Source: Candidatus Eiseniibacteriota bacterium (lineage in GTDB: Bacteria; Eisenbacteria; RBG-16-71-46; CAVPCR01). From it: 64,000 nucleotides of DNA. The notes under the pieces are model-generated. The model ran no database searches. It was not told the origin of the DNA and worked only from the letters and a program-made list of their open reading frames with translations. Below are positions 14,331-31,615 of the stretch, one piece after another (within the stretch, counting starts at the first letter, position 1; the number at the start of each line of letters is the position of its first letter). The stretch covers positions 32,001-96,000 of the forward strand of contig CAWGMA010000001.1 in NCBI GenBank assembly GCA_963823555.1, written 5' to 3'. The translations under genes were made by a program, and so were the position numbers.

Positions 14331-14360
14331 TTGAGACTGGTTCTCAAGTGCAATCTCAAG
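14331..14360. promoter_or_regulatory. Palindromic operator candidate in the divergent promoter region
   Basis: TTGAGA-ctggt-TCTCAA (14331-14347) plus a second TCTCAAG 12 bp downstream, in an AT-richer intergenic stretch. Confidence 0.4.
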
Positions 14361-14613: not shown

Positions 14614-16269
14614 ATGAGAACCGCTCCGGGCCTCTGGACCCTCGTCCTCGCCGCCGTCGTTGCCGCCATGGTCGTCGTCCCCGCCGGGGCAACGACGCTC
14701 CATGTGCCTGCTCAGTATCCGATCATCCAGGATGCCGTCAACGCCGCCCAGGCCGGGGACACGGTGCTTGTCGCTCCCGGAACGTTCACCCACGTGCGCC
14801 AGCCACCTGGCGCCGACTCTTGCGCCGTCTTCATGAAGTCGGGCGTCACGCTCCGGGGATCGGGTCGCGGCCAGACCATCATCGATCCGCAGTTGCTTGC
14901 TCGCGGCATCTTCTGTCGGAACGTGGTCAACGCCCGGATCGAACGGCTCACCATCAAGCGTGCCTTTGGCCAGATCCACGGGGCAGGCATCTTCTGCGAG
15001 CAATCGTCCTCACCCGTCATCCGCGATGTTGAGGTCACGCTCTGCGAGGATGGTGGGATCATCTGCCTCAACTCGAGTCCTACCATCGAAGGGTGCTTCA
15101 TCACCGACAACATCTCCAAGCAAGGCGGCGGGCTAGCCATCGAGGATAGCTCCTCACCGCAGGTGATCGATTGCTCGATCCTGCGCAATTCCGCCCCCGC
15201 GGGCGGCGGCCTCTTCGTGCGGGCCGCCTCGGCGCCGACGCTGACGCGCTGCCTCATCAAGGACAACACACTCAGCACCGTGAACGGCGCCGGGGGCGGG
15301 GTGGGCATCGTCTCGGCCAGTCTGACCATCTCCGACTCGCAGATCGAGAACAACACGGCGACCGGACCTGGTGGGGGGTTCGCCGTCATCGACAACGCAA
15401 CGCTCAATGCCACCCGGTGCGACATCATGGGCAACGACACGACCGATGATTACGGCCCCGGGGGCGGTATCTACTGCGAGTTCGCTAGCATGACGCTCGA
15501 TCGGTGCCTCATCGTCCGTAACACGGCCCCGGGGGCGGACTCCGACGGCGGGGGGATCATCGCCTTCTTCGCCGTGGACGTCATGATCAATGAGTGCACG
15601 ATCGCGGCCAACGGCACCAGTGCCCAGGCTCTTGGTGGCGGAATCACCTGCATCACCTCGTCGCCGACCATCCAGAGCTCGATCATCGCCTTCAACAATC
15701 CGGGTAAGGCAATGTACTGCACGGACGGCTCCAGCACGCCCGTCGTGTCGTGCTCGGATCTGTTCGGCAATCAGGGCGGGAATCAGATCTGCGGCACGGA
15801 TGCTGGTAATAACTTCTCGCTCGACCCACGCTTCTGCAACCTGGCTCAGAACGACTTCGCCCTTCATGTCGATTCGCCCTGCCTCGACAACCAGCATCCG
15901 AGCGGAGCGCCGTGCGGTCAGATAGGGGCGCGAGCGCTTGGAACCTGCGACGGCATCGGCATCGCCGACGAGGAAGCAGCACCGCGTGGGTTCCTCCTTC
16001 GCCATCATGCCGTTCCCAATCCGTTCAGTACGGCGACGGCGATCACTTTCGAGCTGACGCGGTCCGAGCGCCTTTCGATCGCCATCTTCGATGTCGACGG
16101 GCGGTTGGTGCGGCTGCTCGCCGATGACACGTTCGTTGCCGGGGGGCATGCACTCCGGTGGGACGGCCGGGACGGCAGCGGGCGAGCGGCGGCGAGCGGG
16201 GTCTATTACTACCGGCTTGGAGGCGAGGGCTTGAGAGGACAGACAGGCCGGATGGTTCTTACGCGCTAG
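14614..16269 (+). CDS. Secreted right-handed parallel beta-helix protein with FlgD-Ig CTD
   Basis: Signal peptide, HVPAQYPIIQDAVNAAQAGDTVLVAPGTF, repeated N.A..GGG(I/L) units, N.SLDPRFC, and CTD PNPFSTAT...WDGRD...SGVYY. Confidence 0.85.
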   Translation: MRTAPGLWTLVLAAVVAAMVVVPAGATTLHVPAQYPIIQDAVNAAQAGDTVLVAPGTFTHVRQPPGADSCAVFMKSGVTLRGSGRGQTIIDPQLLARGIFCRNVVNARIERLTIKRAFGQIHGAGIFCEQSSSPVIRDVEVTLCEDGGIICLNSSPTIEGCFITDNISKQGGGLAIEDSSSPQVIDCSILRNSAPAGGGLFVRAASAPTLTRCLIKDNTLSTVNGAGGGVGIVSASLTISDSQIENNTATGPGGGFAVIDNATLNATRCDIMGNDTTDDYGPGGGIYCEFASMTLDRCLIVRNTAPGADSDGGGIIAFFAVDVMINECTIAANGTSAQALGGGITCITSSPTIQSSIIAFNNPGKAMYCTDGSSTPVVSCSDLFGNQGGNQICGTDAGNNFSLDPRFCNLAQNDFALHVDSPCLDNQHPSGAPCGQIGARALGTCDGIGIADEEAAPRGFLLRHHAVPNPFSTATAITFELTRSERLSIAIFDVDGRLVRLLADDTFVAGGHALRWDGRDGSGRAAASGVYYYRLGGEGLRGQTGRMVLTR

Positions 16270-16330
16270 CGGGTCTCCGACCCGCCGGGAAGGCCGCGAC
16301 GAGAATCGCTTTCGAGCGCGGAGGGGTAAC

Positions 16331-19300
16331 ATGCGCAACAGATGGAGCGGGGTCGCGTTCACTCTCGTCGGGGCCGGACTGGCGCTGGTTGCGGGCATCA
16401 CGGTCGGGCCGCCAGCCGCCGCCGCCGATGAGTCCGGCCCCGCGTCGGTGCGGATCCTGGTGGGGAGCGAGGCGACCGCTGGGCGTTTGTCGCTTCACCT
16501 GGACGTTGAGGCGGGGGCGACCATGCCCGCCCTCAAGCTCGTCGCGCTACCCGCGGGCTCGGCTGAGGCCGAGCTCTCGATCGGAGGAGACGCCGCGGGA
16601 CTCACGGTCCGAGCCGGGAGGCCGATGGTGCTCCGCGGGCTCCGCGTGCTGCCGCTTCTCGTCGAGGAACAGGCAGCCTCGGCCGGCAAGGCGGAGGCCC
16701 CGCATTCGCTGGACCTCGAGGTCCGCTACTCAGCGGCGAGCGCCGCCGCGCCATCGCGGGCGCTGGAGTACAGCGCCGGGTTCTTCTCGCCCTTCCTCGA
16801 TCTGCTCCCGGCAACACAGCGTGCGGCGCTCCAGAGCACGAGCGAGGGCGGCTACCTCATCATCACGGCCCCCGAGTTTCAGGCCACCCTCGACCCCCTC
16901 ATCGCCTGGAAGCGGGATGCGGGATTCGCGGTCACGGTCGTCACCACGCTCGAGACCGGGACCCGTAACGACCAGATCCGCGATTGGATTCGCAACTACT
17001 ACGCAGGTGCAGCGGTTCCTCCCCAGTACTTGCTTCTGGTAGGGGATGTCGACCGCCTACCGGGGTTCGACTATCACCAGAGCGTTTCCGATCACTCCTA
17101 CAGCCTCATCGACGGCGATGACTTCCTGCCTGACATTCAGGTCGGTCGCCTCTCGGCTCTCGGCACCCAGGACCTGGCCACCATCGTTGCCAAGATCGTG
17201 AACTACGAGAAGACACCGGACCGAAGTGATCCGGAGTGGTTCTCACGCGCCCTTCTCGTTGCCGGTAACTACAGCTCCTCGACGCCGGTTCCGGTCATGC
17301 GCTGGTGTCGCGACGAGCTCATGGCCCAGAGCTACGCGCAGGTCGATACGGTCTACTACCCGCCGCACTGGGCGACCGGACCGACCCTGATCCGTCCGAT
17401 CATCGACCGCGGCGTCTCGCTGGTCGCCTATCGGGGCTGGGCATACGGCTGGCAGGGCTGGGAACCGCCCAAGTTCACCGTGGAACACATCCCCGCGCTG
17501 GCCAATGGCTGGCGGCTGCCCGTCGTGATGAGCTTCGTCTGTCTGAACGGTGATTTCACCGAGCCCGAGTGCTTCGGTGAGGCCTGGATTCGCTCGGGAA
17601 CCGTCGACGCGCCCAAGGGGGCGGTGGGATTCATCGGCAACAGCGAGCACTGGTCGCACACGCGCTTCAACGATGCCGCGGCGATCGGCGTTTTCACCGC
17701 CTTCGGTGACGGCGAGCGCGCCCTCGGTAACCTGCTGAATGCGGCCAAGTTCGGTATCATGACCCAGTTTCCGGACATCCTCGAGTTCGAGGAGTACGGT
17801 GAGGAGTCGGTCGAGTTCTACTTCCATATCTACAGTCTGCTCGGTGACCCCTCGCTCGAGATCTGGAGCACGGAGCCCGATTCGGCCGTCGTCACGCATG
17901 CGACGGCGATCCCGCGCGGTGCGAACCTCTTCGAGGTGAGTGTGGAGCGTGCCGCGGACGGCACGCCGGTGGCTGGCGCGCGTGTGGGTCTCGTCCAGGA
18001 CGGGATCCTCCTCGGATCGGCCCGGAGCGACGAGAGTGGTGTGGCCAGAGTCTCCGCCGTCTTCGAGCGCGCCGACGTGCCGGTCACGGTCACGGTCAGC
18101 GGTGCCGGGCTCTTGCCGGTCACGGCCAGCGTTCCGGTGGTCGAGGGGGGCCCGTACCTCGCGCTTGCGGGCATCGCCATTCGCGACGACGGTACGGGCG
18201 GCAGCCAGGGCAACGCCGACGGCGAAGTGAACCCGGGAGAGACGATCGCGCTCGAAGCCACGCTCGAGAATCGCGGAGCGACGGCAGCGCCAGCGGGCAC
18301 CGCCACCCTGACTGTCTTGGCGGGGGCGGAGGTCACGACCGGTACAGCGAGCTTCCCGGCGATCGCGAGCGGCGCGAGTGTCGCGACCGCGCCATTCATC
18401 GTCACCGTCGCCGCCGATGCCGAGGACGGACTCAGTCCTGGCTTCCGGCTCAACGCGTTCTCCGGAGCCGATTCCTCGGTGTCCGGTCTCTCGCTGGTGA
18501 TCAAGGCGCCGGCCCTGCGTCATACCGGCCACACGATCGGCGGTGACGGGGTGGCTTCGCCGGGGGACACGGTCGCAGTTCTCGTCACCGTTCAGAACGA
18601 CGGAGCGCTTGCCGCTTCCGTGTCCACGGGGACCCTGCGCGCGCTCGATCCGGCCGTCGCCACGGTCGAGGATTCAACGGCCTCTTTCCCCGCGCTGGCT
18701 TCCGGGGCCGCGGGCGAGTCGCTCGTGCCGTTCTCCATCATCCCCGCGTCCGATGCGCCCAGGGGCCAGACGGCCAGCTTCGTCCTCGAGCTCAGGACCG
18801 CTGAGGGTTACACGAGCCGGACGACTTTCGGGGTGCGCCTCGGCCCGGTCGATCATCGTGCCCCGCTCGGACCCGATGCCTACGGTTACCATGCGGTCGA
18901 CAATACGGATACCGATTATCCGAACGTGACGCCGGTCTACGAGTGGGTACCCTGCTCGCCGGTTTACGGCGGGTCCGGAACCAGACTCGATCTCGGCGAC
19001 AACACCTCGGTTGTCGTCGGGTTGCCCTTCGATTTCACCTTCTATGGTCGGACCTATCGACGTCTCCTCGTCTCCGACAACGGCTGGGCGGCGTTCGACA
19101 CCACGGCGACCTACGACTATTACAACTGGAGCATGCCCAATCCCTACAACAACGGCGCCATGATCGCACCCTTCTGGGACAACCTCGATCCCGAGAAGGC
19201 TCACGACGGCGTTCGAGTGGGAGACGGGATCTATGTCTTCCACGATACGGCGAGGCACCGTTATGTGATCGAGTGGAGCCGGCTCGGCAACTTCTTCTCG

Positions 19301-20149
19301 CAGCATCCCAATCACGAGGACTACGACGACCTGCAGACCTTCGAGTTGATCCTCTTCGATCCCGCGGCCTATCCGACACCGACCGGCGATGGTCTCATCC
19401 GGTTCCAGTACAAGCAGGTCTTCAACAACGATGACACGCGCATGTACTCGACGGTGGGCATCGAGAACGAGGACGAGGATGTGGGGCTCGAGTACTCCTA
19501 CACCAACCTCTACCCGGATACCGCAGCCCCGCTGTCGGCCGGACTGGCGATCGACTTCACGACCGCAGCGCCGCTCTACTCGCCGTTCCGCCTCGCCGCG
19601 TTCAGCGCCCAAGCAGCGGGCGGTGGTGTCGCGCTCTCCTGGCAGCCCGTGGACGAACGGCCCCGATCCGGCTATCGCGTCTACCGGTCCGGAGACGAGG
19701 GGGCCCGGAGGCTCCTCCCGGATGCGGTGCTCGGGGGCGATGCGCGCGGGTTCTTGGACTCGACCGCCGATCCGGATTCGGCAGCCACCTACTGGATCGG
19801 GTCGCTCGATCCTGTCGGCCATGAAAGTCTGCTCGGGCCCTTCGCCTACCCCGGCCGGGGAGCGGCACCCCGAGCTCTCGAGTTCGCCGTTTCCGGACAG
19901 AACCCATTTGCTGCGATGGCCCGTCTCACCCTGGCCTTGCCTGGGCGTGAGCAGGCGAGCGTCCGCATTTACTCGGTCACGGGTCGCCTGGTGCGCACGC
20001 TGGACGCCGGGTTCCTCGAGGCGGGAATCTGGACTCTCGAATGGAATGGTCGAGATGAGTCTGGTCGCGAGCTCCCGAGCGGCGTCTATGTCGCCCGACT
20101 CGAGGCAGGCCTGGAAGAGCGCGAGGCCAAGCTCGTGCTCATTCGCTGA
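16331..20149 (+). CDS. Gingipain-like C25 family protein (paralog of 10508-14197) with FlgD-Ig CTD; His-site variant YRGW
   Basis: YLIIT, YLLLVGD, SDHSY, QVGRLS, FVCLNGDF, CFGEAW, GAVGFIG, LLGDPSL; NIDO-like segment; CTD QNPF...WNGRD...SGVY. Confidence 0.88.
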   Translation: MRNRWSGVAFTLVGAGLALVAGITVGPPAAAADESGPASVRILVGSEATAGRLSLHLDVEAGATMPALKLVALPAGSAEAELSIGGDAAGLTVRAGRPMVLRGLRVLPLLVEEQAASAGKAEAPHSLDLEVRYSAASAAAPSRALEYSAGFFSPFLDLLPATQRAALQSTSEGGYLIITAPEFQATLDPLIAWKRDAGFAVTVVTTLETGTRNDQIRDWIRNYYAGAAVPPQYLLLVGDVDRLPGFDYHQSVSDHSYSLIDGDDFLPDIQVGRLSALGTQDLATIVAKIVNYEKTPDRSDPEWFSRALLVAGNYSSSTPVPVMRWCRDELMAQSYAQVDTVYYPPHWATGPTLIRPIIDRGVSLVAYRGWAYGWQGWEPPKFTVEHIPALANGWRLPVVMSFVCLNGDFTEPECFGEAWIRSGTVDAPKGAVGFIGNSEHWSHTRFNDAAAIGVFTAFGDGERALGNLLNAAKFGIMTQFPDILEFEEYGEESVEFYFHIYSLLGDPSLEIWSTEPDSAVVTHATAIPRGANLFEVSVERAADGTPVAGARVGLVQDGILLGSARSDESGVARVSAVFERADVPVTVTVSGAGLLPVTASVPVVEGGPYLALAGIAIRDDGTGGSQGNADGEVNPGETIALEATLENRGATAAPAGTATLTVLAGAEVTTGTASFPAIASGASVATAPFIVTVAADAEDGLSPGFRLNAFSGADSSVSGLSLVIKAPALRHTGHTIGGDGVASPGDTVAVLVTVQNDGALAASVSTGTLRALDPAVATVEDSTASFPALASGAAGESLVPFSIIPASDAPRGQTASFVLELRTAEGYTSRTTFGVRLGPVDHRAPLGPDAYGYHAVDNTDTDYPNVTPVYEWVPCSPVYGGSGTRLDLGDNTSVVVGLPFDFTFYGRTYRRLLVSDNGWAAFDTTATYDYYNWSMPNPYNNGAMIAPFWDNLDPEKAHDGVRVGDGIYVFHDTARHRYVIEWSRLGNFFSQHPNHEDYDDLQTFELILFDPAAYPTPTGDGLIRFQYKQVFNNDDTRMYSTVGIENEDEDVGLEYSYTNLYPDTAAPLSAGLAIDFTTAAPLYSPFRLAAFSAQAAGGGVALSWQPVDERPRSGYRVYRSGDEGARRLLPDAVLGGDARGFLDSTADPDSAATYWIGSLDPVGHESLLGPFAYPGRGAAPRALEFAVSGQNPFAAMARLTLALPGREQASVRIYSVTGRLVRTLDAGFLEAGIWTLEWNGRDESGRELPSGVYVARLEAGLEEREAKLVLIR

Positions 20150-20238
20150 CGGCAGCGTCGTACGGCAGGAAAGAAGCAAGACTGGTGCGGAGCGCAGTGA
20201 GTCAAACGAGCAGGCGAGGACCGGGCCGAAGGCTTGAG

Positions 20239-21447
20239 ATGGTCCGACTCGGTTCGGTCCTGGTCCTGATCCTATTCGCGGCGGCCCATCTCCTGCCCGC
20301 ACCGGCGGGTGCGGAGGATGCTCCCGGATCGAAGGCGGCGCAGCAAACGACGAGAAGAAGCAAGAGCACCAAGAAGAAGAGCTCCAAGAAGAAGAGTTCC
20401 AAGAAGAAGGCTCCGCCTCCAGTGGATTTCAGCGGCGCCTTCGCCTTCGAGTTCATCTACGACGACAACGTCATCCACTATTCGGACGAGGATCTGGAGG
20501 AGTTCGCCACGCAGCCCAACGAGGGCAAATTCTCGATCACCTCGGCCGACGACTGGATCCTGAGGCCGCGTCTCGACATCGTGATGACGACATTCCGTCT
20601 CACAGGGAAGCCGCTCTCCACCCGGTTCCGGTATTCCTATTGGTACTACACTACGAACGACGTCAAGAACAACCAGTCGCTCCAGTTGCGGTTCAATCAC
20701 CCCGGGTTCGACAGCAAGGACAGCTTCGAGTTCACGATCTACTACTCCCCGCTGTCCTATATCCGCAACTTCCGCGATCGGCCCCCCTACGCACCTGCTT
20801 CGCAGCCGACTGAGTACACCGATTTCTCGTATACGTCGAACTCGTTCACGATCGGCTACTTCCGGCGGTGGACGCGATCGATCGATGCCGCCGTCGACCT
20901 CCGGCGTTCGATTCGCTATTACAACCAGGCATTCATGGAGAACGACAACTGGGAGTGGAACATCGGCACCAATGTCCTCTACCGCCTGACGAGTATCTAC
21001 CGCATTCGCGGTGAGTACGACTACAGCCATGTCGTGGCGCGCGGAGCGGACGAGGTGGGTGAGACGCGCGAGCTCTCCGATGATGGTGATCCCTCCTATG
21101 ACCGTGATTCCTATCGACTCTCGTTCGAGTATCGCCCGCGACGGAACCGCTACAAGCTGGACGGGATCACGCTGAGCGGGCAGTACCAGGCGTACTACTT
21201 CACGAGCCAGAAGACGGTCGACGAGGATCCGACGCACGTGGGGCGAAAGGACCAGGTCTATCGCCTCGGGATCGAGGCGGATACGGATCCGCTCATCGGC
21301 AAGGTCGCCTTCTACGCGGGCTATCTCTACAGCCAACGAACCTCCACGAGTCCGTCCGGTGTGGTGGTGGGTGATGATATCGGCGAGGAGAAGGACTACA
21401 CCGACAACCGCTCCTACTTCGGGGCGACTTACCCCCTGCCCTTCTGA
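20239..21447 (+). CDS. Probable outer-membrane beta-barrel protein with Lys/Ser-rich N-terminal extension
   Basis: Signal peptide ending AGA|EDA, Tyr-rich alternating strands, N-terminal YDDNV motif, C-terminal YFGATYPLPF. Confidence 0.7.
   Translation: MVRLGSVLVLILFAAAHLLPAPAGAEDAPGSKAAQQTTRRSKSTKKKSSKKKSSKKKAPPPVDFSGAFAFEFIYDDNVIHYSDEDLEEFATQPNEGKFSITSADDWILRPRLDIVMTTFRLTGKPLSTRFRYSYWYYTTNDVKNNQSLQLRFNHPGFDSKDSFEFTIYYSPLSYIRNFRDRPPYAPASQPTEYTDFSYTSNSFTIGYFRRWTRSIDAAVDLRRSIRYYNQAFMENDNWEWNIGTNVLYRLTSIYRIRGEYDYSHVVARGADEVGETRELSDDGDPSYDRDSYRLSFEYRPRRNRYKLDGITLSGQYQAYYFTSQKTVDEDPTHVGRKDQVYRLGIEADTDPLIGKVAFYAGYLYSQRTSTSPSGVVVGDDIGEEKDYTDNRSYFGATYPLPF
20356..20409 (+). repeat. 15-bp in-frame tandem repeat encoding (KKKSS)n
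   Basis: AGAAGCAAGAGCACC / AAGAAGAAGAGCTCC / AAGAAGAAGAGTTCC / AAGAAGAAG, translating to RSKSTKKKSSKKKSSKKK. Confidence 0.85.
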
Positions 21448-21551
21448 ATGGCCAGGAAGAGCGGGAGAGAAGCATGAGGAATTCGAGTATGAGATCGGGC
21501 AGGCGCGAGGTGGGGATCGGGCATCTTGTCGGCGGATGGGAGGCGGGAGCT

Positions 21552-23987
21552 ATGCTCCCCAAGGTGGCGCTTTGCCTGGCTGTTCTTGCCGGCTGCGGTG
21601 CCCAGGATCTCTACGAGCCGCCGACGGCGCCCTACATGATCGCCGGGCGTCTCAGTCTGCCCAGCCGCGTCGAGGACGTGAGCGTGCTCGGCGACTATGC
21701 CTATCTCGCCACCGGGCAGACCGGCCTCGTGATCGTGGACATATCCAGTCCGTCCACTCCCACCACGCTCAGGATACTCGACACGGTCAAGTACGCGGAG
21801 TCAATCAAGGTGGCGAGCACGCCGGCTGCCGACGGCGTGACCGACATCGCCTTCGTGGTCGAGGGCACGGAGGGTATCACCACTTACGACGTGACCGAGC
21901 CGGTCACCGCCTTCTCCTTCCAGCAGGGGACGACCGCCGTCGACGGCAACGGGCTCTTCGTCGAACTGCCTGATGAGCCCGGGGAGCCCTATGTCGTCTA
22001 TCTCGCCGAGAACTGGAAGGGACTCCGCATCTTCGAGTCCGATCCGACGACCCCGGGACTCCTGCGCTACAACGGTGTCTTCGCCGACACGCGCGGCTTC
22101 GCCAAGGCAGTGACCGTGAAGGACGGCTTCGCCTACGTCGCCGATGACGAACTGGGGCTCGCCGTCCTCGATGTCCGCACGCGCATCCTGGGGTCCGTCG
22201 TGATCGTCTCTGCTGCGGATACCCCCGGGAACGCCCTGGGAGTGGACATGGAGGGGGATCACGTCGTGGTCGCCGACGGAGACAACGGCCTCGTGATCAT
22301 GGAGGTGCATCTCGAAGGAGATCCCCCGGTACCGGTGCCCAGCCCGGTGGGGCACATCGCGCTCCCGGGCCGGTGCCGGTCGGTCCAGGTCCACGACGGC
22401 ACCGCGTTCGTGGCCGCCCAGGACGGTGGGGTGCATTTCGTCGATGTCACAACACCGTCCGCGCCCCGGCTCATCGGCACCGTGATCTCGAGCTACGCCA
22501 CCGGCGTTGCGGTCAGCAAGTCGGGAACGGTCGCGGTGAGCGATCGCGATGAGGGGCTTCTCGTTCTGACCGGGGGGCCGGCGCTTTCCGACAGGACCCC
22601 ACCGGCTGCGGTCGGCGACCTCTCGGCCCAGGCGGCGAGCGCTACGAGCGCCAGCCTGAGCTGGCGGGCGCCCGGCGACGACGGGCTTTCCGGGCAGGCC
22701 AGCCGCTATGACGTCCGCCTGGCCACGGTGCCCATCGACACCATGTCGGTCTGGGATCAGGCGACCCCGCTCGAGGGGGTGCCGGCACCGGGTCCCCGCG
22801 GGATCACCGAGGATCTGGTCGTGAACGGACTCACCCCCGGGGCCGAGGTCTTCTTCTGCATTCGGACCGCGGACGTGGCTGGAAACTGGTCCGATCTCTC
22901 CAACACCGCGTCGGTCCGGACTCCGCTCGGCAATGTGCCGCCGACCTTGTGCTGCAGCGTGGTCACGCCCGTGACCGGAACGACGGATTCGACCTTTGTC
23001 TTCGAGGTGACCTATCAGGATGGCGATGGGGATGCGCCCACCGAGGCGCTCGTCGTCGTCAGCGGGACGCCCCATGCCATGGCCCTCGCGAGCGGCGCCT
23101 ATGATACCGGGGCTCGCTTCCGGTACGCGGGATCCCTGCCATCAGGTGAGCAGGAGCACTACTTCTCGTTCTCGGATGGGGTGAATCCGACGGTCGAGAC
23201 TCCGGCGGCGCCGGGACCCTATGTCGCCTATGTCGCCTTCACGATGGGTAGCCCGCCCGAGGAGCCCGGCCGCGACGTGGACGAAACGGCGCACCCGGTC
23301 GCACTCTTGCGTTCGGTGACCCTCTCCGATCATGAGGTCACGCAGGCCGAGTACGAGGGAATCATGGGCGCCAATCCCTCGCGCATCGTCGGCGCCGACC
23401 TGCCCGTGCACAACGTGACCTGGGCCGATGCCGTTCTGTACTGCAACCAGCGCTCGATCGATGAAGGGCTGACCCCCGCCTATGTCATCGCCGGCGAGAA
23501 TGTGACCTGGAACCAGGAGGCCGACGGATACCGCTTGCCGACCGAGGCCGAGTGGGAGGGCTACTGCCGGGCCGGATCGGGGGCTGCGCTCGCCAATGGA
23601 CCGCTCGGCGAGGAGGCATGCGGGCTCGACAGCGGGCTCGATGCCATGGGCTGGTACTGCGCCAACGCCGGCGCGGGGCCGCACGCGGTCAAGACCAGGC
23701 AACCCAACGCCTGGGGTCTCTACGACATGCACGGCAATGTCTGGGAGTGGTGCTGGGATCGCTACACCGAAGATCTCGGCGGCGCCATCCAGGTTGATCC
23801 CACGGGGCCGACCTCGGGGCTGGCGCGCGTGATCCGGGGCGGTTCCTGGTACTACTTCGCTCGCGATTGTCGCTCCGCGGCTCGCGCTCCCTACTGGCCC
23901 AACTCAGCGGATGACACGATCGGGTTCCGCGTCGCGCGAAACGGTGCCCCGGGAGCGGCCGGGCGGGGAGGGCGTCCATGGCAGTAA
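21552..23987 (+). CDS. Lipoprotein with LVIVD repeats, an Fn3-like domain and a C-terminal FGE-sulfatase (SUMF1/CLec-fold) domain
   Basis: Lipobox VLAG|C; repeats YAYLATGQTGLVIVDIS and FAYVADDELGLAVLDV; LSWRAPGDDG; YRLPTEAEWE, NAWGLYDMHGNVWEWCWD, RGGSW, IGFRVAR. Confidence 0.85.
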   Translation: MLPKVALCLAVLAGCGAQDLYEPPTAPYMIAGRLSLPSRVEDVSVLGDYAYLATGQTGLVIVDISSPSTPTTLRILDTVKYAESIKVASTPAADGVTDIAFVVEGTEGITTYDVTEPVTAFSFQQGTTAVDGNGLFVELPDEPGEPYVVYLAENWKGLRIFESDPTTPGLLRYNGVFADTRGFAKAVTVKDGFAYVADDELGLAVLDVRTRILGSVVIVSAADTPGNALGVDMEGDHVVVADGDNGLVIMEVHLEGDPPVPVPSPVGHIALPGRCRSVQVHDGTAFVAAQDGGVHFVDVTTPSAPRLIGTVISSYATGVAVSKSGTVAVSDRDEGLLVLTGGPALSDRTPPAAVGDLSAQAASATSASLSWRAPGDDGLSGQASRYDVRLATVPIDTMSVWDQATPLEGVPAPGPRGITEDLVVNGLTPGAEVFFCIRTADVAGNWSDLSNTASVRTPLGNVPPTLCCSVVTPVTGTTDSTFVFEVTYQDGDGDAPTEALVVVSGTPHAMALASGAYDTGARFRYAGSLPSGEQEHYFSFSDGVNPTVETPAAPGPYVAYVAFTMGSPPEEPGRDVDETAHPVALLRSVTLSDHEVTQAEYEGIMGANPSRIVGADLPVHNVTWADAVLYCNQRSIDEGLTPAYVIAGENVTWNQEADGYRLPTEAEWEGYCRAGSGAALANGPLGEEACGLDSGLDAMGWYCANAGAGPHAVKTRQPNAWGLYDMHGNVWEWCWDRYTEDLGGAIQVDPTGPTSGLARVIRGGSWYYFARDCRSAARAPYWPNSADDTIGFRVARNGAPGAAGRGGRPWQ

Positions 23988-25144
23988 GCGTGAGCGAGAG
24001 GGTGGTCGTGAGCGATTCGCCCAGGCCCGAGACGCCGAGGCGCCCCGGCGGCAAGCAGCGCCTCGATTACATCGACCAGTTCCGCGGCCTGGTCGGCGTG
24101 CTCATGCTGCTCGGTCACAGCTCGTACTACTTCAATGCGATCTGGCGTGGCCTCGATCCGCTGGACCCCGTGTTCGGGAGCATGCCCCAGTTCATCCTGC
24201 GCTATGTGGGCTATCTGTGCGCCCCCGGGTTTCTCATGATGAACGGGGCCATGGTCTGGTACTCGTACACCCGCCGCCGCGCAGGGGGGGAGAGCGAGTG
24301 GTCCACGAAGTGGCATCTGCTCCAGCGCGGGCTGTTCCTCGTGCTGGTGCAGATGACCTGGGTGAACTCCTCGTGGGGAGGGTTTGCGGGCTGGCACCTC
24401 TGGCACCTCGGTATCATCGCGGCCATCGGGCTCGCCATGTGCTTCCTGACCCTGATCGTCGACTGGAGCCTGAAGGTGCGTCTGGCCGTGGCGCTCGCTG
24501 TCTTCGCCATCCATCCGCTGCTGCTGCGGATCCCCTACGACACGAGCCATACCTGGGCCACGGTCTTGATGCAGACCTTCATCGACTCCGGCGAGTTCAA
24601 CAAGTACCCTGTCATCCCCTGGTTCGGGCTGGCGGTCATGGGATCGGTGATGGCCACCGGCTGGATCGAGATCTGGCGGACGACGCGGGCGCGGGTCACG
24701 GCGAGCCTCTTGATCGCTGTCGCGGCCCTCGGCCTCGCCACGCTGGTGCGTCTGGGCCGCGGCTACGGCACCTTGAACGATTTCCAGTCGCTCACGCACT
24801 TCTCGTTCCTGCTCGATCAGAAGTATCCGCCGAGCCTGTATCATCAGCTCTGGTTCTTCGGCGCGGTGTGCGGGTGGATGGCGGTGATCCAGTGGCTCGG
24901 TCATCAGGTGCCGCGCGCAACGGCATGGCTCGGCGTTGTCGGTCGCGTGCCGCTCTTCTACTACTGCGTGCACATCGGGATCCTGGGCATCTTCTCGAAG
25001 CGGCTCGGGATCTACTATCGTGAAGGCGGGGTGACCGAGACCTTGATCGGGTTCGGGATCATGCTGGTCGTGATGATGCCGCTGGCGCGCTGGTTCGGGG
25101 GGGTGAAGAGGAGGAGCAAGAACCCCATCATTCAGATGATCTAG
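23978..25144 (+). CDS. DUF1624/HGSNAT-like polytopic membrane protein (putative acyltransferase)
   Basis: RLDYIDQFRGLVGVLMLLGH, CAPGF, QRGLFL, YPVIPWFG, KYPPSL, GRVPLFYY and many TM segments. Confidence 0.8.
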   Translation: MAVSVSERVVVSDSPRPETPRRPGGKQRLDYIDQFRGLVGVLMLLGHSSYYFNAIWRGLDPLDPVFGSMPQFILRYVGYLCAPGFLMMNGAMVWYSYTRRRAGGESEWSTKWHLLQRGLFLVLVQMTWVNSSWGGFAGWHLWHLGIIAAIGLAMCFLTLIVDWSLKVRLAVALAVFAIHPLLLRIPYDTSHTWATVLMQTFIDSGEFNKYPVIPWFGLAVMGSVMATGWIEIWRTTRARVTASLLIAVAALGLATLVRLGRGYGTLNDFQSLTHFSFLLDQKYPPSLYHQLWFFGAVCGWMAVIQWLGHQVPRATAWLGVVGRVPLFYYCVHIGILGIFSKRLGIYYREGGVTETLIGFGIMLVVMMPLARWFGGVKRRSKNPIIQMI

Positions 25145-25724
25145 CCTCGTGCTGGTCTTCACTGCTCGCCGCGGACCGATCGGCCCGGCGCGCCGCCTTC
25201 CTTGCGGCCTTCTCCATCTCGGCCTCCGCCTCGGTGCGCAGGCGGAAGTTCTTCTCGGCGATGAGTTCGCGGAAGAGATAGACGCGGAAGGTATAGTCAC
25301 CTGGGTCGCGACGGCTCGGCCGGATGGAGATCGAGCTTTTCAGCATGGTGTCTTCATCGCTCGGATCGAAGGCGATTTGCTTCTGATAGAAGACGTTGCC
25401 GTCAGCAGTGGACCAGACGAGATGGAACTTGAGCAAGCGCTGGCCGAGAGCGTAGGGGTTCTCGAGATCGACGAAGGCGTGGACCCTGGCGCCCTTGGCG
25501 AGCGTGAAGACCCGGCCGGTGCCGAGGCGCTTTCCGGTCTTCTTGCTCACGTCACGGCAGAGCGTGATCGAGGCCGTGATGCCATCCGGCTTCTTGGCCG
25601 GGTAGCTGAGGGTCGAGTCGGGCTCCACGACGGGCACCTCGGATCGGCTGGAGCAGCCCGATGCAAGTGCTAGAGTCAAGATGGCGAGATAGAGGGTGGC
25701 TGGCGCGCGCCGGGCGCTCCGCAT
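25128..25724 (-). CDS. Basic lipoprotein (~198 aa), possibly DUF2914/Ig-like
   Basis: ATG 25724 follows GAGGAG; lipobox LASG|C; C-terminal PGDYTFRVYL. This is the real 3' part of track ORF 25128..26510. Confidence 0.7.
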   Translation of the reverse strand: MRSARRAPATLYLAILTLALASGCSSRSEVPVVEPDSTLSYPAKKPDGITASITLCRDVSKKTGKRLGTGRVFTLAKGARVHAFVDLENPYALGQRLLKFHLVWSTADGNVFYQKQIAFDPSDEDTMLKSSISIRPSRRDPGDYTFRVYLFRELIAEKNFRLRTEAEAEMEKAARKAARRADRSAASSEDQHEARSSE

Positions 25725-25812
25725 CGTGGTCTCCTCCCTGGTGCGCTCCCGGTCGGCCCCCGTTCGGGGTCGACGCGGATGCCATTCTAGCTCATCGCCG
25801 CGGAGTAGGGAT

Positions 25813-26991
25813 ATGTTCGTCGCCCTAGCGCTCATTGCCGTCGTCCTCCTCCTGTGGTCGGTGGAGGCCGTTCGCCTGCGGCGCGGGCTCAGGGCGGTTC
25901 CCATCCGTATCCACGTCAACGGCAGTCGCGGCAAGTCGTCGGTGACGCGGCTGATCGCCGCCGGGCTCCGCGAAGCTGGGCTGCGAGTCCTGGCCAAGAC
26001 CACCGGCAGCCGAGCCCGGCTCATCCTGCCCGACGGGAGCGAGGAACCGGTGGTGCGGCTCGGGACGCCCAATATCGGCGAGCAGGCCGGCATCATCCAG
26101 CGGGCTCGCCGGGAGAGCGCCCAGGTCCTGGTCATGGAATGCATGGCCGTCCGGCCCGACCTCCAGCGCATCAGCGAGAAATCGATCATGCACTCGACGA
26201 TCGGTGTCATCACCAACGCCCGTGCGGACCACCTCGACGTCATGGGACCCACGGTCGCTGATGCCGCCCATGCTCTGGCCTCGACCATGCCCCGACGCGG
26301 CCGTGTCGTGGTCGGGGAGACGCTTTGCATGGACGTGTTCGCCGATGAGGCCCGGCGGCGCGAGTCGGAGTTCATTGTTGCCAAGGCGGCGGACGTACCG
26401 GCCGATGTCATGGCCGGCTTCTCCCATGTCGAGCATGCGGAAAACGTGGCCACCGCGCTGGCCGTGACCCGGATCCTCGGCGTGGCGGACGAGGTAGCGA
26501 TCCGAGGCATGCATCACGTGGCCCCCGATCCGGGAGCCTGTACGCTGTCCCACCTCGAGCATCGCGGGCTCGCCATCGAGTTCGCCAATATCTTCGCGGC
26601 CAACGACCTCGAGTCGACGATTGCGGTGTGGAAGCGGCTCGGCTTCGACCAGCGGAGCCCGGAAACGACCGTCGCCCTCTTGAATCTGCGCGGCGATCGC
26701 CTGGCTCGGTCGCTGGAATTCGCCGCGGCGGTGGAGACCCACCTGCGTGCCGATTACTATCTCCTGGTGGGGGATTTTCCGGACCGCGTCCGGCGGCGTT
26801 TCGAGGAGCAAGTGCCGGCCGACCGTCTGATCCCGCTCGGACGAGCCCACCCTGGGGCGATCTTCGACCGCATTGCCGAGGTCGGGGGGCCCGGAGTGCG
26901 GGTCGGTGGGATCGGCAACATCGGCGGACTGGGTCACGACATCCTGTCCTTCGTCGCCGCCGGGAACGGCGGCGAGAGGGGGAGTTCATGA
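25813..26991 (+). CDS. pgsB: Poly-gamma-glutamate synthase PgsB/CapB (Mur ligase family)
   Basis: N-terminal TM, then IRIHVNGSRGKSSVTRLIAAGL, AKTTGS, NIGEQ, MECMAVRP, ITNARADHLDVMG, PDPGA and FAANDLES. Confidence 0.93.
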   Translation: MFVALALIAVVLLLWSVEAVRLRRGLRAVPIRIHVNGSRGKSSVTRLIAAGLREAGLRVLAKTTGSRARLILPDGSEEPVVRLGTPNIGEQAGIIQRARRESAQVLVMECMAVRPDLQRISEKSIMHSTIGVITNARADHLDVMGPTVADAAHALASTMPRRGRVVVGETLCMDVFADEARRRESEFIVAKAADVPADVMAGFSHVEHAENVATALAVTRILGVADEVAIRGMHHVAPDPGACTLSHLEHRGLAIEFANIFAANDLESTIAVWKRLGFDQRSPETTVALLNLRGDRLARSLEFAAAVETHLRADYYLLVGDFPDRVRRRFEEQVPADRLIPLGRAHPGAIFDRIAEVGGPGVRVGGIGNIGGLGHDILSFVAAGNGGERGSS

Positions 26992-27004
26992 GGAGAGGGC
27001 TCTC

Positions 27005-27469
27005 ATGCTGATCGCCGAGGCCATCGGGCTCGGGCTCGTCGTGAGCTTGCTGTTCACGGAGGCCGTGGGTTTCGCCGCTGGCGGGTTCGTGGTGCCCGGC
27101 TACATCGCGCTCTATCTCGACCGGCCGCTCATGTTGCTCGGCACCGTGGTGGCCGCCGGAGCCACCTATCTCACGGCGCGGCTGGCCGGACGCTATCTCA
27201 TCATCTACGGGCGGCGTAGTCTGGTGCTGGCCGTGCTCATCGGCTTCGTCTTCGGCGCACTCATCGAGCGACTGCCGCGCCTCGACTTCACCTTCGAGAG
27301 CGGAACGCTCGCGGCCATCGGGTACATCATTCCGGGCCTCATCGCCTACTGGATGATCCGGCAGGGCGTGGTGCGCACGCTGGCCTCGATGGTGGTCGCG
27401 GCGGTGCTCGTGCGCTTCGCCCTGATCCTCCTGCACGGGGGTGCTGTCCTTGAAACGCCTGTTCTCTAG
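27005..27469 (+). CDS. pgsC: Poly-gamma-glutamate biosynthesis protein PgsC/CapC
   Basis: IGLGLVVSLLFTE..G..AGGFVVPGYIAL, IYGRR and IGYIIPGLIA..M.RQG; strong RBS; directly follows pgsB. Confidence 0.93.
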   Translation: MLIAEAIGLGLVVSLLFTEAVGFAAGGFVVPGYIALYLDRPLMLLGTVVAAGATYLTARLAGRYLIIYGRRSLVLAVLIGFVFGALIERLPRLDFTFESGTLAAIGYIIPGLIAYWMIRQGVVRTLASMVVAAVLVRFALILLHGGAVLETPVL

Positions 27470-29525
27470 CCACTTGCCGTGGGCGAAGCGGGCCGACCTG
27501 CTGCTCGTCCTGCTCGCCGTGCTGGGGCTCGTGCTCACCAACGTGAGCGAGGTCACGCAGCGACTCGAGGCCAAGCCCGATCTGGCGCGGAAGATGGCAG
27601 CAGCGACCAGCACCGTGCGCTGTTTCGAGGCCATCCGCCAGTACCGCCTGGGTGGTAACGCCAGCTTCGACCGCGAAAACGATCCCGAAGGAAGCGGTCT
27701 CATCGGTCAGGAGTTCACGCTCATCACCACCGATCGAGGCGTGCTCGAGGCGAAGCTGACATCAGTGAATCCGAACTTCGCCGCCTTGTTCGTCCGCTAC
27801 CTGCAGGAACTGGATCTCAAGCCCGGCGACCCGGTGGCCATCGCCATGACCGGATCCTTCCCGGCATTGAACATCGCGGCTCTGGTCGCAGCCGAAGAGC
27901 TTGGTCTGCGTCCGCTGCCCATCACCTCGGTGGGCGCGAGCATGTGGGGAGCCAACGATCCCTCCTTCACCTGGCTCGACATGGAGAGCCTCCTGATCGA
28001 GCGCGGGCTGATCCATACGCGCTCGATCGCCGCCTCGCTGGGCGGTTCCAACGACCGCGGTCGCGGCTTGAGCCCGATGGGACGCACGCTGCTCCACGAC
28101 GCGATCATGCGTAATGGGGTGGCGGTCATCTCCGAGCCGACCCTCGAGGAATCGGTCGAGCGGCGCGTGGCGGTGTTCGACAGCGCGGCGGGCACGGCCG
28201 GCGTCAAGGCCTACATCAACATCGGTGGTGGCTCGGCCTCGATCGGCAACCAGCTGAATGGGACTCTCATCCGGGCTGGAGTGAATCACCGGCTCAAGCG
28301 GTACAACTGGACGCGTCGCGGGGTATTGCACGAGTTTGCGCGGCGCGGAGTCCCGATCGTTCATGTCCTGGGCGTCGAGCAGATCGCCCATGCCAATGGC
28401 TTTCCGGTGGCTCCAGAGCTGGTGCCGGCGGTGGGTGAGGGCAAGATCTACCACGAGGAGGTCTATGATCTCCGCATCGTGGTGCCGGCCTTCCTCACCT
28501 TCCTCGTTCTGTGTCTGGGTGTTCTCTACACCCGCCATCACGCCGCACGACAGGCTGCGCTCGCCACCTTGCCGCCCGGGGTTCCAGTCGCCGGCGAGGC
28601 GGAGCCAGGGGAGCAGAAGACCGCCTCGGCGCGGGCCCGTGTTGCGCTCTCGATGCTCATCCTCTTCCTGGCGATGGCCCCGGGTGCCGATGCGGCATCG
28701 AGCCGCCTCAGAGCCACGAGCTCGGCCGGGAAGATCAGCATTCGCCTCGACGGCAAGCAGGCGAGCTACGATCTGGCCACCGCCGAGCGGCCGTTCGAGG
28801 TCAAGGTGACGGGCCCGGCCAAGATCCGGGTGGTCAGTCGGCTGATCCTGCCCCCTCCGCCGCGGGCGGCCAAGACCACGTACAAGCTGCGGATCGAAGC
28901 CGGCGAGGTCGTTCTGCGCACCCTGTCGGCCAAGGCCGGAGTGAGCCAGAGTGCGCGGACGGCGGACGGCAGGGCGGTGGGAACGCTTCAGCGCAAGGAG
29001 ATCCAGATTCCCGGCGGGTCGCACACCGTGCGCATCGTTCCCGCTGATGGCAGCAGTCAGGTGGCGATTCGTGTCTTCCTTGGATCCGGCAAGCCGAAGG
29101 TCAAATGGACTCCGTTCGCGCCCGAGAGCTACGTGAAAGCCGTGCGGCTCCAGGGCCAGGATTCGGAGGTGACCTACTATCGTTTCAGCCAGGATCAGCC
29201 CGTCGGCCTCACCATCGCCGGTCCGACCACGCTGCGGGTGATCACGCGCATCGACTTCGGTCAGGCGCGAGGCTACTCCCAGGCCTACGCCATCAAGGTG
29301 AACCTCGATTCGAAGCCGCTGAAGACGTTTTCCTTGAAGGCCACGGCCAGCCACACCGCGACCTACCCCGAACTTCCGCTGGTCACTCCGGGAGTCGGGC
29401 GCGATCTGAGTTTCGAGGTACCCAAGGGCCGGCATACGATCACGATCGAGCTGGATGCGGCAACGACCAAGACGGCTGCGCTCCGCATCCTGATTCCGCG
29501 CGATACGGTGACCAACCAACGCTGA
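27441..29525 (+). CDS. pgsW: Poly-gamma-glutamate system protein PgsW fused to a secreted tandem-domain module
   Basis: DPEGSGLIGQEFTLITTDRGVLEAKLTSVNPNFAA, MTGSFPALNIA, SVGASMWGANDP, ASLGG and YINIGGG. After the C-terminal TM there is an extra ~300 aa. Start is GTG 27441 or TTG 27450. Confidence 0.85.
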   Translation: MLSLKRLFSSHLPWAKRADLLLVLLAVLGLVLTNVSEVTQRLEAKPDLARKMAAATSTVRCFEAIRQYRLGGNASFDRENDPEGSGLIGQEFTLITTDRGVLEAKLTSVNPNFAALFVRYLQELDLKPGDPVAIAMTGSFPALNIAALVAAEELGLRPLPITSVGASMWGANDPSFTWLDMESLLIERGLIHTRSIAASLGGSNDRGRGLSPMGRTLLHDAIMRNGVAVISEPTLEESVERRVAVFDSAAGTAGVKAYINIGGGSASIGNQLNGTLIRAGVNHRLKRYNWTRRGVLHEFARRGVPIVHVLGVEQIAHANGFPVAPELVPAVGEGKIYHEEVYDLRIVVPAFLTFLVLCLGVLYTRHHAARQAALATLPPGVPVAGEAEPGEQKTASARARVALSMLILFLAMAPGADAASSRLRATSSAGKISIRLDGKQASYDLATAERPFEVKVTGPAKIRVVSRLILPPPPRAAKTTYKLRIEAGEVVLRTLSAKAGVSQSARTADGRAVGTLQRKEIQIPGGSHTVRIVPADGSSQVAIRVFLGSGKPKVKWTPFAPESYVKAVRLQGQDSEVTYYRFSQDQPVGLTIAGPTTLRVITRIDFGQARGYSQAYAIKVNLDSKPLKTFSLKATASHTATYPELPLVTPGVGRDLSFEVPKGRHTITIELDAATTKTAALRILIPRDTVTNQR

Positions 29526-29559
29526 CGGCGCTCCTCGGGCTCGCGCCGTCCGACCGGAG

Positions 29560-30120
29560 GTGCGATTGACCACAAGCAGCCGCTTCCTGAGAGCAACTGC
29601 GGCTCTCCTGACGGTGCTGATCGCCGGTTTCACCGCGCCGCTCGCTGCGGCCCCCGCTGGCGGCGACCCGGCACCGCCCTTCCGGTTGCCGGCTCTCACC
29701 AGCGGTCATGTCCTGGGCTCGGATTCACTCCTGGCGGCGGGGCGTCCCACCTGTCTCATCCTGTGGAACACGGCCTGTTCCGATTGCCTTGCCGATGTCC
29801 TGGCCGCCGCCGAGCGGCTGGCCGCGTGCGATTCGCTGGCCATCATCGGGATCGTGAGCGGAGAAGAGCGAGTGGGCGATGCACGCCGCTTCATGCGTGA
29901 CACCGACCTCCGCTTCCTGAACCTCTGGGATGCGACGGGCGCCGTCGGTCGTGCCTACGGCATCGGCGAGGAGAGTTTCAGCGCCTACCTCATCGCGGCC
30001 GACCGCCGTATCCTCCTCGGTCAGGTCGGTCATCCTCCCGACCGCGCTGAGTTCTTCTCTCGGATGTGCGCTCTGGCCCATGAGCCAGACGGGGGAGGGA
30101 GTGATGAGCTCGAGCCATGA
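29560..30120 (+). CDS. Exported TlpA/redoxin-family thiol-disulfide oxidoreductase
   Basis: Signal peptide, GDPAPPFRL, WNTACSDC (CxxC) and WDATGAVGRAYGI. Confidence 0.75.
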   Translation: MRLTTSSRFLRATAALLTVLIAGFTAPLAAAPAGGDPAPPFRLPALTSGHVLGSDSLLAAGRPTCLILWNTACSDCLADVLAAAERLAACDSLAIIGIVSGEERVGDARRFMRDTDLRFLNLWDATGAVGRAYGIGEESFSAYLIAADRRILLGQVGHPPDRAEFFSRMCALAHEPDGGGSDELEP

Positions 30121-31615
30121 CGCCGATGGACCTCGACGTCCCTGCCTTCCCGGAGCCGGGATCCTTGCGACGATCCTGCTTGCCGGAAGCCTCATGCCTG
30201 ATGTCGGGCACGGTGCCAGCCTGCTCGAAGGCCGGGTCGAGCTCACGGGTGATGTCCGTCTGCGCTGGCTACAATCGGACGTGGATGGCGGTGTCATCAC
30301 GGGGCTCTACGGGGAGCCTCTTCGCCAGCAAACCTCCTTCCTTCACCGCTTCACCCTCGCGGTGGAAGGTCGACTCACCGACCGGCTGATGGCGGGTGGC
30401 CTCATTAGGATCAGCAACGAGCCCGATCGCGTGCTGGCCCTCGGTCCCGATTACTTCTCATCTTCCTTCGGCAGCGCGTTCATCGCCGCGCAATGGCCGG
30501 CCTTCGAGGCCCGAGGCGGCTACTATCCGGTGCATACGACCCCGCTTGGATTGATGCGCTGGGACCGGGAGGACCTGGGCCTCGGTGGATCGCAACGGGG
30601 CTGCAGCGTGTGCGGAGGCGCTTCGGCCGGCGTGCTCCTCGAGAGCCTCGAGGAAATCGACGACGATCTGACCTTCGAGGGCGCGCGGGTGGGGGGAACC
30701 GTCGATCGCTTCGATCTCGACTGGATGGTCCTCTACGCCCGGCCCCAGGCGGCTACGCTCGACGAGGTGCCAGGGATCGGCGTCTTCGACGAGGAGACGT
30801 TCCGCTATCACCAGGACCTCATCACGGGTCGCCTGATCTTCTCCCGTCTTCATGCGCCCACGCTCGGTTTCCGTCGCTTGGGGCTCGCTGTCTATCACGT
30901 TCGCGATGATCCGGCGAATCCGCCCTGCCCGACCCTGCCCGAGAGCCCGACCTGTTTCGCTCACGAGCAGTCCGCCTTCGGTGTCGACATTCGCCTGCCC
31001 CTCGGCCGGCGCCTGCTCGCCGAAGGCGAGTGGTTGCGCACCGCCGCACGCGAGGATGCACGCGGCGATTCGCTCCCGGTAGCCTGGGAGAACGGCTTCC
31101 GCTTGACCGGGGAGCTCGTGATCCTGCCCGAGCGGCTCCGTCTCAACTCGGCCTATCTCTGGCTTGGCGAGCGTTTCGACTCCCCATACAGCGCGCTCAC
31201 CTATCGTCCCAACCGGACCGGTCAGCGTCACCGCCTGACCGCGACGCTGACGGCGGTCGATCTCGAAGCGTTCGTACGCCTCACGCGTCCCGTGGCTCCG
31301 GAATGGGTGGTGGCCAACCGCGCTCGCCTCCATAGCGAACGGCTGTTGAGCGGCCAAGGATCCTTCATCTGGCGCGAGCGCTGGCGCGCCATCGCCGGGA
31401 TCCAGGTGGAGAGACGTGAACTCGATGTTCTCGCCGGATGGGAGGGCGATTACCGGGATGGTGACCGACGCATCGTGCTGGCCGAGATCCACTACATGAT
31501 GGATGTCCTGGACCTCTACTTCAGCCAGCAGTGGATCCACGAGGAAGAGCCGCGCGCAGCGGCCGACACGAGCACGGCCACAGTCGTTGCGCTCGGAGCC
31601 CGCGCCCGATTCTGA
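30104..31615 (+). CDS. Probable outer-membrane beta-barrel protein containing a CxxC loop
   Basis: Signal-like N-terminus, alternating strands, C-terminal ALGARARF, internal GCSVCGG. Overlaps the redoxin stop. Confidence 0.65.
   Translation: MSSSHDADGPRRPCLPGAGILATILLAGSLMPDVGHGASLLEGRVELTGDVRLRWLQSDVDGGVITGLYGEPLRQQTSFLHRFTLAVEGRLTDRLMAGGLIRISNEPDRVLALGPDYFSSSFGSAFIAAQWPAFEARGGYYPVHTTPLGLMRWDREDLGLGGSQRGCSVCGGASAGVLLESLEEIDDDLTFEGARVGGTVDRFDLDWMVLYARPQAATLDEVPGIGVFDEETFRYHQDLITGRLIFSRLHAPTLGFRRLGLAVYHVRDDPANPPCPTLPESPTCFAHEQSAFGVDIRLPLGRRLLAEGEWLRTAAREDARGDSLPVAWENGFRLTGELVILPERLRLNSAYLWLGERFDSPYSALTYRPNRTGQRHRLTATLTAVDLEAFVRLTRPVAPEWVVANRARLHSERLLSGQGSFIWRERWRAIAGIQVERRELDVLAGWEGDYRDGDRRIVLAEIHYMMDVLDLYFSQQWIHEEEPRAAADTSTATVVALGARARF

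Follow-up and report, generated by a model that had tools for sequence, protein, structure and literature searches.

In Bacillus, PgsB and PgsC polymerise glutamate with ATP into poly-gamma-glutamate (PGA), which CapD anchors to peptidoglycan and PgdS releases, according to the accessible part of PMC3815933. The PGA model of CapsuleFinder was built on the Bacillus operon and, in the portion of PMC5542703 at hand, has no outer-membrane component for PGA. A three-gene core, capB-capC-pgsF, has been described for Cloacimonadota (bioRxiv 10.1101/2025.11.11.687785), and we infer that its PgsF corresponds to TIGR04332; this core is already known (TIGR04332; the same preprint; PMC8542988, both accessible in part). 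Here we analyse a 64,000-nucleotide stretch of DNA from a Candidatus Eiseniibacteriota bacterium (positions 32,001 to 96,000 of contig CAWGMA010000001.1; hereafter the window), in which pgsB, pgsC and pgsW lie within a larger cassette at 10508-29525. This block probably combines PGA synthesis with a basic periplasmic module, export through a predicted barrel, and surface processing by C25-family proteins in place of CapD. An initial annotation had proposed a pathway of this kind for 16331-31615. The cassette as delimited here is wider on the left, where a second C25 gene (10508-14197) and a beta-helix gene (14614-16269) are added, and shorter on the right.

All open reading frames (ORFs) named in the initial annotation were found where it had placed them, and the three core genes score above curated cut-offs. 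The PGA synthase amide ligase pgsB (25813-26991, plus strand) reaches 382.7 bits with TIGR04012 against a cut-off of 222.7, and pgsC (27005-27469, plus strand) reaches 118.3 bits with TIGR04011 against 96.45. A 694-residue ORF (27441-29525, plus strand) matches TIGR04332 over residues 21-327 with 316.5 bits against 100. Its PgsW part (27441-28544) carries hydrophobic segments at the N- and C-terminus that flank the conserved domain; pgsW is single in the genome, and a PDB sequence search with its profile gave nothing significant. Judged by these family assignments, the polymer made by PgsB/PgsC/PgsW is very probably PGA.

The locus shares with the Bacillus PgsBCA(E)/CapBCADE systems the PgsB and PgsC families and the linkage of a putative polymer-processing enzyme to the synthase genes. 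Unlike those systems, it has PgsW in place of PgsA/E, no CapA in the operon, and an added periplasmic module, outer-membrane barrel, lipoproteins, acyltransferase and C25 proteins. It has the same core as the Gram-negative capB-capC-pgsF/TIGR04332 cassette, whose description, in the accessible part of the preprint, mentions neither export nor periplasmic nor C25 components. The reported absence of capA and capD from the window was confirmed for the 42 ORFs covered by our Pfam scan, and extends to the genome (4.62 Mb, 92.5% complete), where PF01019, the CapD/gamma-glutamyltransferase (GGT) family, has no match. The lone CapA-family match (PF09587) lies 2 Mb away, bears a tail of the type IX secretion (T9SS) kind and is split over two frames, by assembly error or decay (G000:C1:2050087-2053000). 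Its homologues are secreted proteins of about 1000 residues with PKD and PGA_cap domains and a C-terminal sorting domain (CTD), and are not canonical CapA. Intact CapA-domain homologues lie near the cassette in three genomes (G007, G016, G049) and in some Ignavibacteria.

The linkage of the flanking genes to pgsBCW is conserved across phyla. Scoring used 80 pgsW loci, the best-matching of at least 569 in the species collection; this set, in which 37 loci have full flanks, is biased toward close relatives and spans Eisenbacteria, Krumholzibacteria, Bacteroidales, Ignavibacteria, Latescibacterota, KSB1, Neomarinimicrobiota, Fermentibacteria and Nitrospirota. The commonest gene order is C25-pgsB-C-W-X-barrel-LVIVD-acyltransferase-(lipoprotein), where X stands for PgsX, a name that we coined for the last 300 residues of the 694-residue ORF. 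PgsX recurs in 79 of the 80 loci (37 of those with full flanks), the barrel in 63 (32), the LVIVD lipoprotein in 54 (28), C25 in 52 (26), the acyltransferase in 45 (25) and the small lipoprotein in 24 (14). The main inference of the initial annotation thus withstands both outcomes that it had named as refuting, a lack of linkage in other genomes and a canonical capA/capD elsewhere, and is partly supported. A redoxin and a second barrel, which the annotation had also included, each occur in one locus (one with full flanks), that of the same genus, and were rejected as cassette members. The cassette is common: pgsW is present in 59 of 172 genomes of the window's own phylum, Eisenbacteria (60 loci), and in 82 of 201 genomes from the phylum of a Neomarinimicrobiota record (hereafter the third phylum), two little-studied phyla. 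One Bacteroidales family (22 genomes) served as a further sample.

PgsX (28626-29525, plus strand) is fused to PgsW in the window and consists of an internal signal-peptide-like segment followed by two CBM35/36-like jelly rolls, whereas most relatives encode these final ~300 residues as a separate signal-peptide gene. PgsW-PgsX fusions occur in 11 of the 80 loci, each with a hydrophobic segment that ends like a signal-peptidase site. Contigs from three sequencing runs matched in short pieces only; one of 602 bases spans 28018-28619 without gaps and is too short to settle the fusion in this genome, which therefore rests on the independent fused homologues. PgsX-like domains are also fused to the N-terminus of the barrel in seven of the 80 loci (E 3e-6 to 8e-3). 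The predicted model, built from 78 sequences (pLDDT 91.9), is all-beta with two jelly rolls that resemble CBM35/36 (Z about 10, rmsd under 3 per domain) and weakly match cellulose BcsB (Z 7.7-8.0). The Pfam scan of the 78 sequences gave scattered weak matches only, and the ESM Atlas gave unnamed clusters only. PgsX is net positive in 74 of the 78 homologues and lies at the 99.7th percentile of the 1554 proteins of 200-450 residues in its own genome. The basic character that the initial annotation had ascribed to several pgs neighbours thus holds for PgsX; the small lipoprotein shows it weakly (93rd percentile), and the barrel family, with a median net charge of 0 (66 members; N-terminal tail with at least eight Lys or Arg in 12 of 45), does not. 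A basic character of the neighbours in general was rejected. Among the 172 genomes, PgsX occurs in 60, of which 58 also carry pgsW, the two PgsX-only matches being weak and single-domain; it lies at most 600 bp from pgsW on the same strand at 59 of the 60 pgsW loci. Half-length, single-domain versions were seen in Nitrospirota and in one third-phylum genome (L052:11072-11608, L053, L199:10704-11189).

The barrel already recognised at 20239-21447 (plus strand, single copy in the genome) is a predicted 14-stranded outer-membrane beta-barrel and a candidate exit channel. The model, from 66 sequences (pLDDT 88.6), has CymA as its best fold match (Z 24.4, rmsd 3.3, 290 aligned residues), followed by OmpG (Z 20.3); PgaA, BcsC and PelB give Z 13.6-13.9. 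The barrel profile returned nothing significant from PDB sequences, and Pfam gave scattered weak matches on the 66 barrels, BBP2_2 in five. At 150 bits or more, the barrel is present in 55 of the 59 pgsW genomes of the phylum versus 5 of the 113 others, on the pgsW contig within 2.5 kb at 39 of the 60 loci and within 15 kb at 47. Six strong paralogues away from pgsW were inspected in genomes of the family labelled f10: a GT2 synthase and a beta-helix gene adjoin two of them, cytochrome oxidase genes adjoin three, and one is on a short contig. The barrel family therefore extends beyond PGA. The first two are another polymer context and count for the export reading. As observations in their own right, the operon of barrel paralogue, GT2 synthase and double beta-helix protein (L124:7387-12202, L125:7538-12335) is a candidate undescribed polysaccharide export unit, and in genomes that lack pgsW (L120, L121, L123) a paralogue sits immediately upstream of a gene cluster for cytochrome c and cytochrome oxidase.

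Considered together, PgsX and the barrel are the likely exit route for the polymer. The cassette would work like synthase-dependent export (BcsA/B/C, PgaA for poly-N-acetylglucosamine, PelB for Pel, AlgK/E for alginate), in which a synthase, a periplasmic guide and an outer-membrane barrel are linked, and not like CapBCADE. The barrels of the known polysaccharide exporters have 16-18 strands. Here, in contrast, the presumed cargo is a polyamide, not a polysaccharide, and the 14-stranded barrel is nearer CymA and OmpG than PgaA, BcsC or PelB. As for the tetratricopeptide (TPR) scaffold of those systems, no TPR family is among the recurring neighbours of the loci, and PgsX is all-beta. Our literature searches, which left subscription papers mostly uncovered, gave no description of the export pair, the cassette or the C25 clade discussed below among the entries listed; the gene order may in part be depicted in the supplement of PMC13082233.

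The C25-family protein at 16331-20149 (plus strand; PF01364, 185.9 bits; FlgD-type tail) reads Y367-R368-G369-W370 against the gingipain Y-T-G-H, keeps Cys404 and has a conserved His443. The second, at 10508-14197 (minus strand), belongs to a divergent subtype of the same clade, here called YRG-C25; it comprises a propeptide, C25 domain, Ig domains and a T9SS-type (type IX secretion) tail, and its divergent position is kept in related loci. By their FlgD/Por tail matches, and with SprA, PorV and PorU genes present in the genome, the locus C25 proteins are predicted T9SS cargo. Since the genome holds 21 PF01364 matches, C25 adjacency to pgs genes alone means little. The YRG motif is limited to the two locus genes and one copy outside the cassette, broken into three on a second contig (G000:C2:369616-371290, minus strand), the genome's other C25 proteins having Gly-His or similar.

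Residue roles in gingipain RgpB were taken from the accessible part of PMC4357240, which prints the catalytic His as His221, where our count along the chain gives 211. The alignment to RgpB is ungapped at the active site: Cys404 corresponds to Cys244 and is kept, the His211 position holds Trp, Glu or Tyr, and the Thr209 position holds Arg. Asp163 of the S1 pocket is not kept, the aligned profile position being mostly Pro, Gln, Thr or Cys, and the new His-Thr motif sits in a loop near RgpB Gln282-Trp284. Among 158 distinct YRG cores (159 minus one chance row), the Cys is present in all and the new His in 149, several of the rest having it shifted by two; the canonical catalytic His is absent from all true YRG cores. 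The propeptide is kept. YRG-C25 is one clade, with 32 YRG rows and 15 canonical rows on either side of one branch (SH-aLRT 98), in a quick tree of 47 of the 75 rows with narrow canonical sampling; a FastTree run took in all 75. The proteins share with gingipains RgpB/Kgp and PorU (C25, clan CD) the fold family, propeptide, catalytic Cys position and T9SS-type tail, and differ from RgpB in the His, Thr and Asp positions and in the new motif. The gingipain-type test of the window C25 found the C25 domain with its catalytic Cys, and neither the His of the dyad nor the S1 Asp.

The YRG-C25 clade occurs almost only in genomes with pgs genes. In the 172 genomes, strong matches were found in 29, every one with pgsW, and in none of the 113 genomes without it; the strong/weak split was set after seeing the score gap (best E under 1e-59 versus over 1e-29). 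The weak matches inspected for the motif (G046, G047, G062 and one G015 paralogue) were all canonical Gly-His, and G038, G041 and G043 were left out. The pgs-type acyltransferase, whose split was likewise set after seeing the gap (under 1e-150 versus over 1e-46), is in the same 29 genomes, and the small lipoprotein is in these and one further pgsW genome. In one family (f15), five of 11 genomes have pgsW, and they are the five that hold YRG-C25, the acyltransferase and the small lipoprotein. In the Bacteroidales family, strong YRG-C25 matches occur in 12 of 12 pgsW genomes and 0 of 10 others, with all 22 genomes holding 4-22 C25 genes. The 201 third-phylum genomes are not represented in the YRG-C25 profile; at a cut-off of 1e-34 fixed beforehand, YRG-C25 is present in 82, pgsW in 82 and both in 78. 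One of the four YRG-C25-only genomes has PgsX and pgsB at a contig end. Metagenome loci baited with the window-type C25 numbered 39, some near-duplicates; 27 have at least 4 kb downstream, and among these at least one cassette gene is present in 26 and pgs core genes in 24.

Three of the four third-phylum genomes with pgsW only were inspected, and all have another cassette that holds GGT and lacks PgsX and the barrel; the same type was found in G067 and in the second locus of G174. The GGT/CapD family is present in five inspected pgsW cassettes without PgsX and in none of 118 loci with PgsX (drawn from 177 loci, many of them duplicates). YRG-C25 proteins are absent where the cassette has GGT, and this exchange of GGT for YRG-C25 across cassette types argues for a CapD-like role of the latter. 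The second cassette type (L119, L141, L195, L196, L197) carries one or two GGT/CapD-family genes, DUF6305, AstE-like peptidases, and a DctM transporter or racemase, without PgsX or the 14-strand barrel; one Bacteroidales genome holds both types. Another candidate gamma-glutamyl enzyme, a CTD-type protein that weakly matches AAT (Ntn-hydrolase), is encoded upstream of pgsB in five Eisenbacteria loci (L038, L039, L043, L044, L046; e.g. L023:6155-7708).

In the mechanism that we propose, PgsB/PgsC/PgsW would make the PGA chain at the inner membrane, and PgsX, which is basic and in this genome joined to PgsW, would guide it through the periplasm. The 14-stranded barrel would pass the chain across the outer membrane, and T9SS-secreted YRG-C25 proteins would act on it outside the cell, in place of CapD. 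It is likely that these proteins act on or bind PGA there. That they are gamma-glutamyl cleaving or transferring enzymes, with the Cys as nucleophile, the Arg binding a carboxylate and the new His as base, is suggested by sequence and has, in our estimate, a little less than an even chance; a non-catalytic or self-acylating binder is appreciably less probable. The loss of the S1 Asp and the gain of an Arg point to an acidic substrate, as caspases bind acidic P1 residues through Arg residues (PMC4357240, part accessible), and conservation of the propeptide, the Cys and the new His leads us to favour an enzyme. Going further, the clade might be a gamma-glutamyl transpeptidase that couples surface proteins to the exported polymer, giving a protein-linked polyglutamate coat via a dedicated 14-stranded channel in at least three phyla, a convergent counterpart of anthrax-type CapD; this we regard as a tentative extension, clearly short of even odds.

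Several observations weigh against the proposal, and rival explanations draw on them. The missing canonical catalytic His leaves the activity of YRG-C25 uncertain. The clade is also multicopy, with several genes per genome, tandem arrays off the locus and variable C-terminal domains, which is odd for a single anchoring enzyme. PGA might then be exported while the YRG-C25 proteins are inactive or single-turnover, a surface-fixed T9SS cargo that holds the polymer or displays variable domains on a polymer scaffold. The arrays of three to seven paralogues with PKD, MAM, GEVED or CarboxypepD_reg domains, found only in pgsW genomes, would suit this explanation. However, the invariant Cys, the near-invariant His-Thr motif and the kept propeptide are expected of a regulated enzyme and, like the absence of the clade where GGT is in the cassette, argue against it, so that we give it roughly one chance in five. 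That 30 of the 59 pgsW genomes of the phylum have no strong YRG-C25 implies that these proteins are not needed for synthesis or export. Moreover, pgsB and PgsX were not found in the assemblies of three third-phylum YRG-C25 genomes, the acyltransferase and the small lipoprotein were not detected in third-phylum loci, and the sampled genomes behind the co-occurrence counts are kin, not independent.

The barrel raises a different doubt. It is closest to an uptake channel, the cyclodextrin channel CymA, and its lumen side is only slightly basic (18.3 versus 15.3, lumen positions being assigned by alternation). The C25 proteins could accordingly be depolymerases that release or recycle PGA while the barrel takes the fragments up, the polymer being a loose slime or store and not an anchored capsule; the M14 carboxypeptidases with CTD that join the third-phylum cassette would fit. 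But the barrel goes with pgsW-pgsX even in the absence of any YRG-C25 (Nitrospirota loci, families f9/f10) and carries PgsX-like fusions, and the loci show no recurrent alternative for the exit, which makes uptake improbable. It is less probable still that the polymer stays periplasmic or attached to envelope parts there, with the linked genes sharing regulation or an envelope role, not an export path. Such a reading would fit the indirect nature of the evidence for PGA and its export in these lineages, the occurrence of barrel-family members outside PGA contexts (three paralogues adjoin cytochrome oxidase genes) and the break-up of the cassette into separate pieces in several Eisenbacteria. 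Nevertheless, the split pieces remain confined to pgsW genomes, and the dependence of T9SS-tailed proteins on pgsW suggests a polymer outside the cell. Finally, the initial annotation had compared the C25 protein at 16331 to the sortase PorU and placed the redoxin and the second barrel in the pathway. The C25 family match and weak scores with NF033707 (50.6 bits) and NF052324 (30.8 bits) would agree with this, but the cut-offs of 420 and 450 are far above, the true PorU is a separate gene beside porV (475.5 bits with NF033707), and the window protein lacks the catalytic His. The two other genes recur in only that one locus. This version is already largely refuted and very improbable.

The remaining members of the cassette were assigned mainly from domains and linkage; Pfam confirmed the earlier domain calls for the C25 protein with CTD, the LVIVD/FGE lipoprotein, the PF07786 acyltransferase and the redoxin. 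Between the two C25 genes, 14614-16269 (plus strand) encodes a right-handed beta-helix protein (Pfam) with a T9SS-type tail, with an orthologue above 260 bits in 16 of the 80 loci and recurrence in metagenome loci. The lipoprotein at 21552-23987 (plus strand; lipobox LAGC) has an LVIVD propeller, Fn3 and an FGE-fold domain, and its Bacteroidota homologues have the propeller alone. An HGSNAT-like multi-pass membrane acyltransferase candidate (23978-25144, plus strand, single copy) matches PF07786 with 39.4 bits versus 22. An Asp-x2-Arg-Gly motif and His47 are invariant in its 23 homologues, and a PDB sequence search with its profile gave nothing significant. The small lipoprotein (25128-25724, minus strand; lipobox ASGC) has no Pfam family and, in profile searches of the 172 genomes, occurs only in those with pgsW; the ESM Atlas gave mostly unnamed clusters, with DUF8428 and DUF3859 as leads. 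The gap from its start (25724) to that of the divergent pgsB (25813) is 88 bp, as measured before. The roles of the acyltransferase and the lipoproteins are guesses: the two lipoproteins may scaffold the barrel, a suggestion somewhat below even odds, and the acyltransferase could, more doubtfully, provide a membrane tether by acylating the free amino end of the chain or its carrier. The third-phylum cassette adds an M14 carboxypeptidase with CTD, a further CTD protein of ~1020 residues for which Pfam gives no catalytic family, and a YRG-C25 subtype with a shifted His motif (L190, L192, L193, L198, L199).

To the right of the cassette, the redoxin (29560-30120, plus strand) overlaps a Cys-rich ORF (30104-31615, plus strand) with no Pfam family and a terminal Phe, for which 'barrel' is the label of the initial annotation only. 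The two look like a separate two-gene unit and are conserved together only within the genus. To the left, just past the divergent C25 gene, an alpha-2-macroglobulin and PBP1C pair (2073-10468, minus strand) places a protease trap beside C25 genes; neither is among the recurring neighbours of the cassette, and both were rejected as members. The window's third C25 gene (49146-54053, minus strand) is of the canonical Gly-His type with FG-GAP repeats, and a tandem array of its close paralogues lies at C1:490000-519000. T9SS-type tails are also found on an M28 peptidase (32492-34000), a multicopper oxidase (35880-37937) and an S8 protease (60319-63612). By a rough pattern, the tail motif is on about 90 proteins of the genome, and sprA, porV and porU are present in this phylum.

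The Bacillus model leaves unexplained how PGA passes an outer membrane and is retained there; with the candidates that the cassette offers for every step, the question becomes testable. Of the C25 genes in these genomes, many are read as gingipain-like and protein-degrading, and a large share of them may serve the polymer instead. If the enzymatic reading is true, the family would gain a chemistry new to it, that of a clan CD enzyme specific for glutamyl groups and with its catalytic His relocated, which could possibly be used to cut or ligate PGA.

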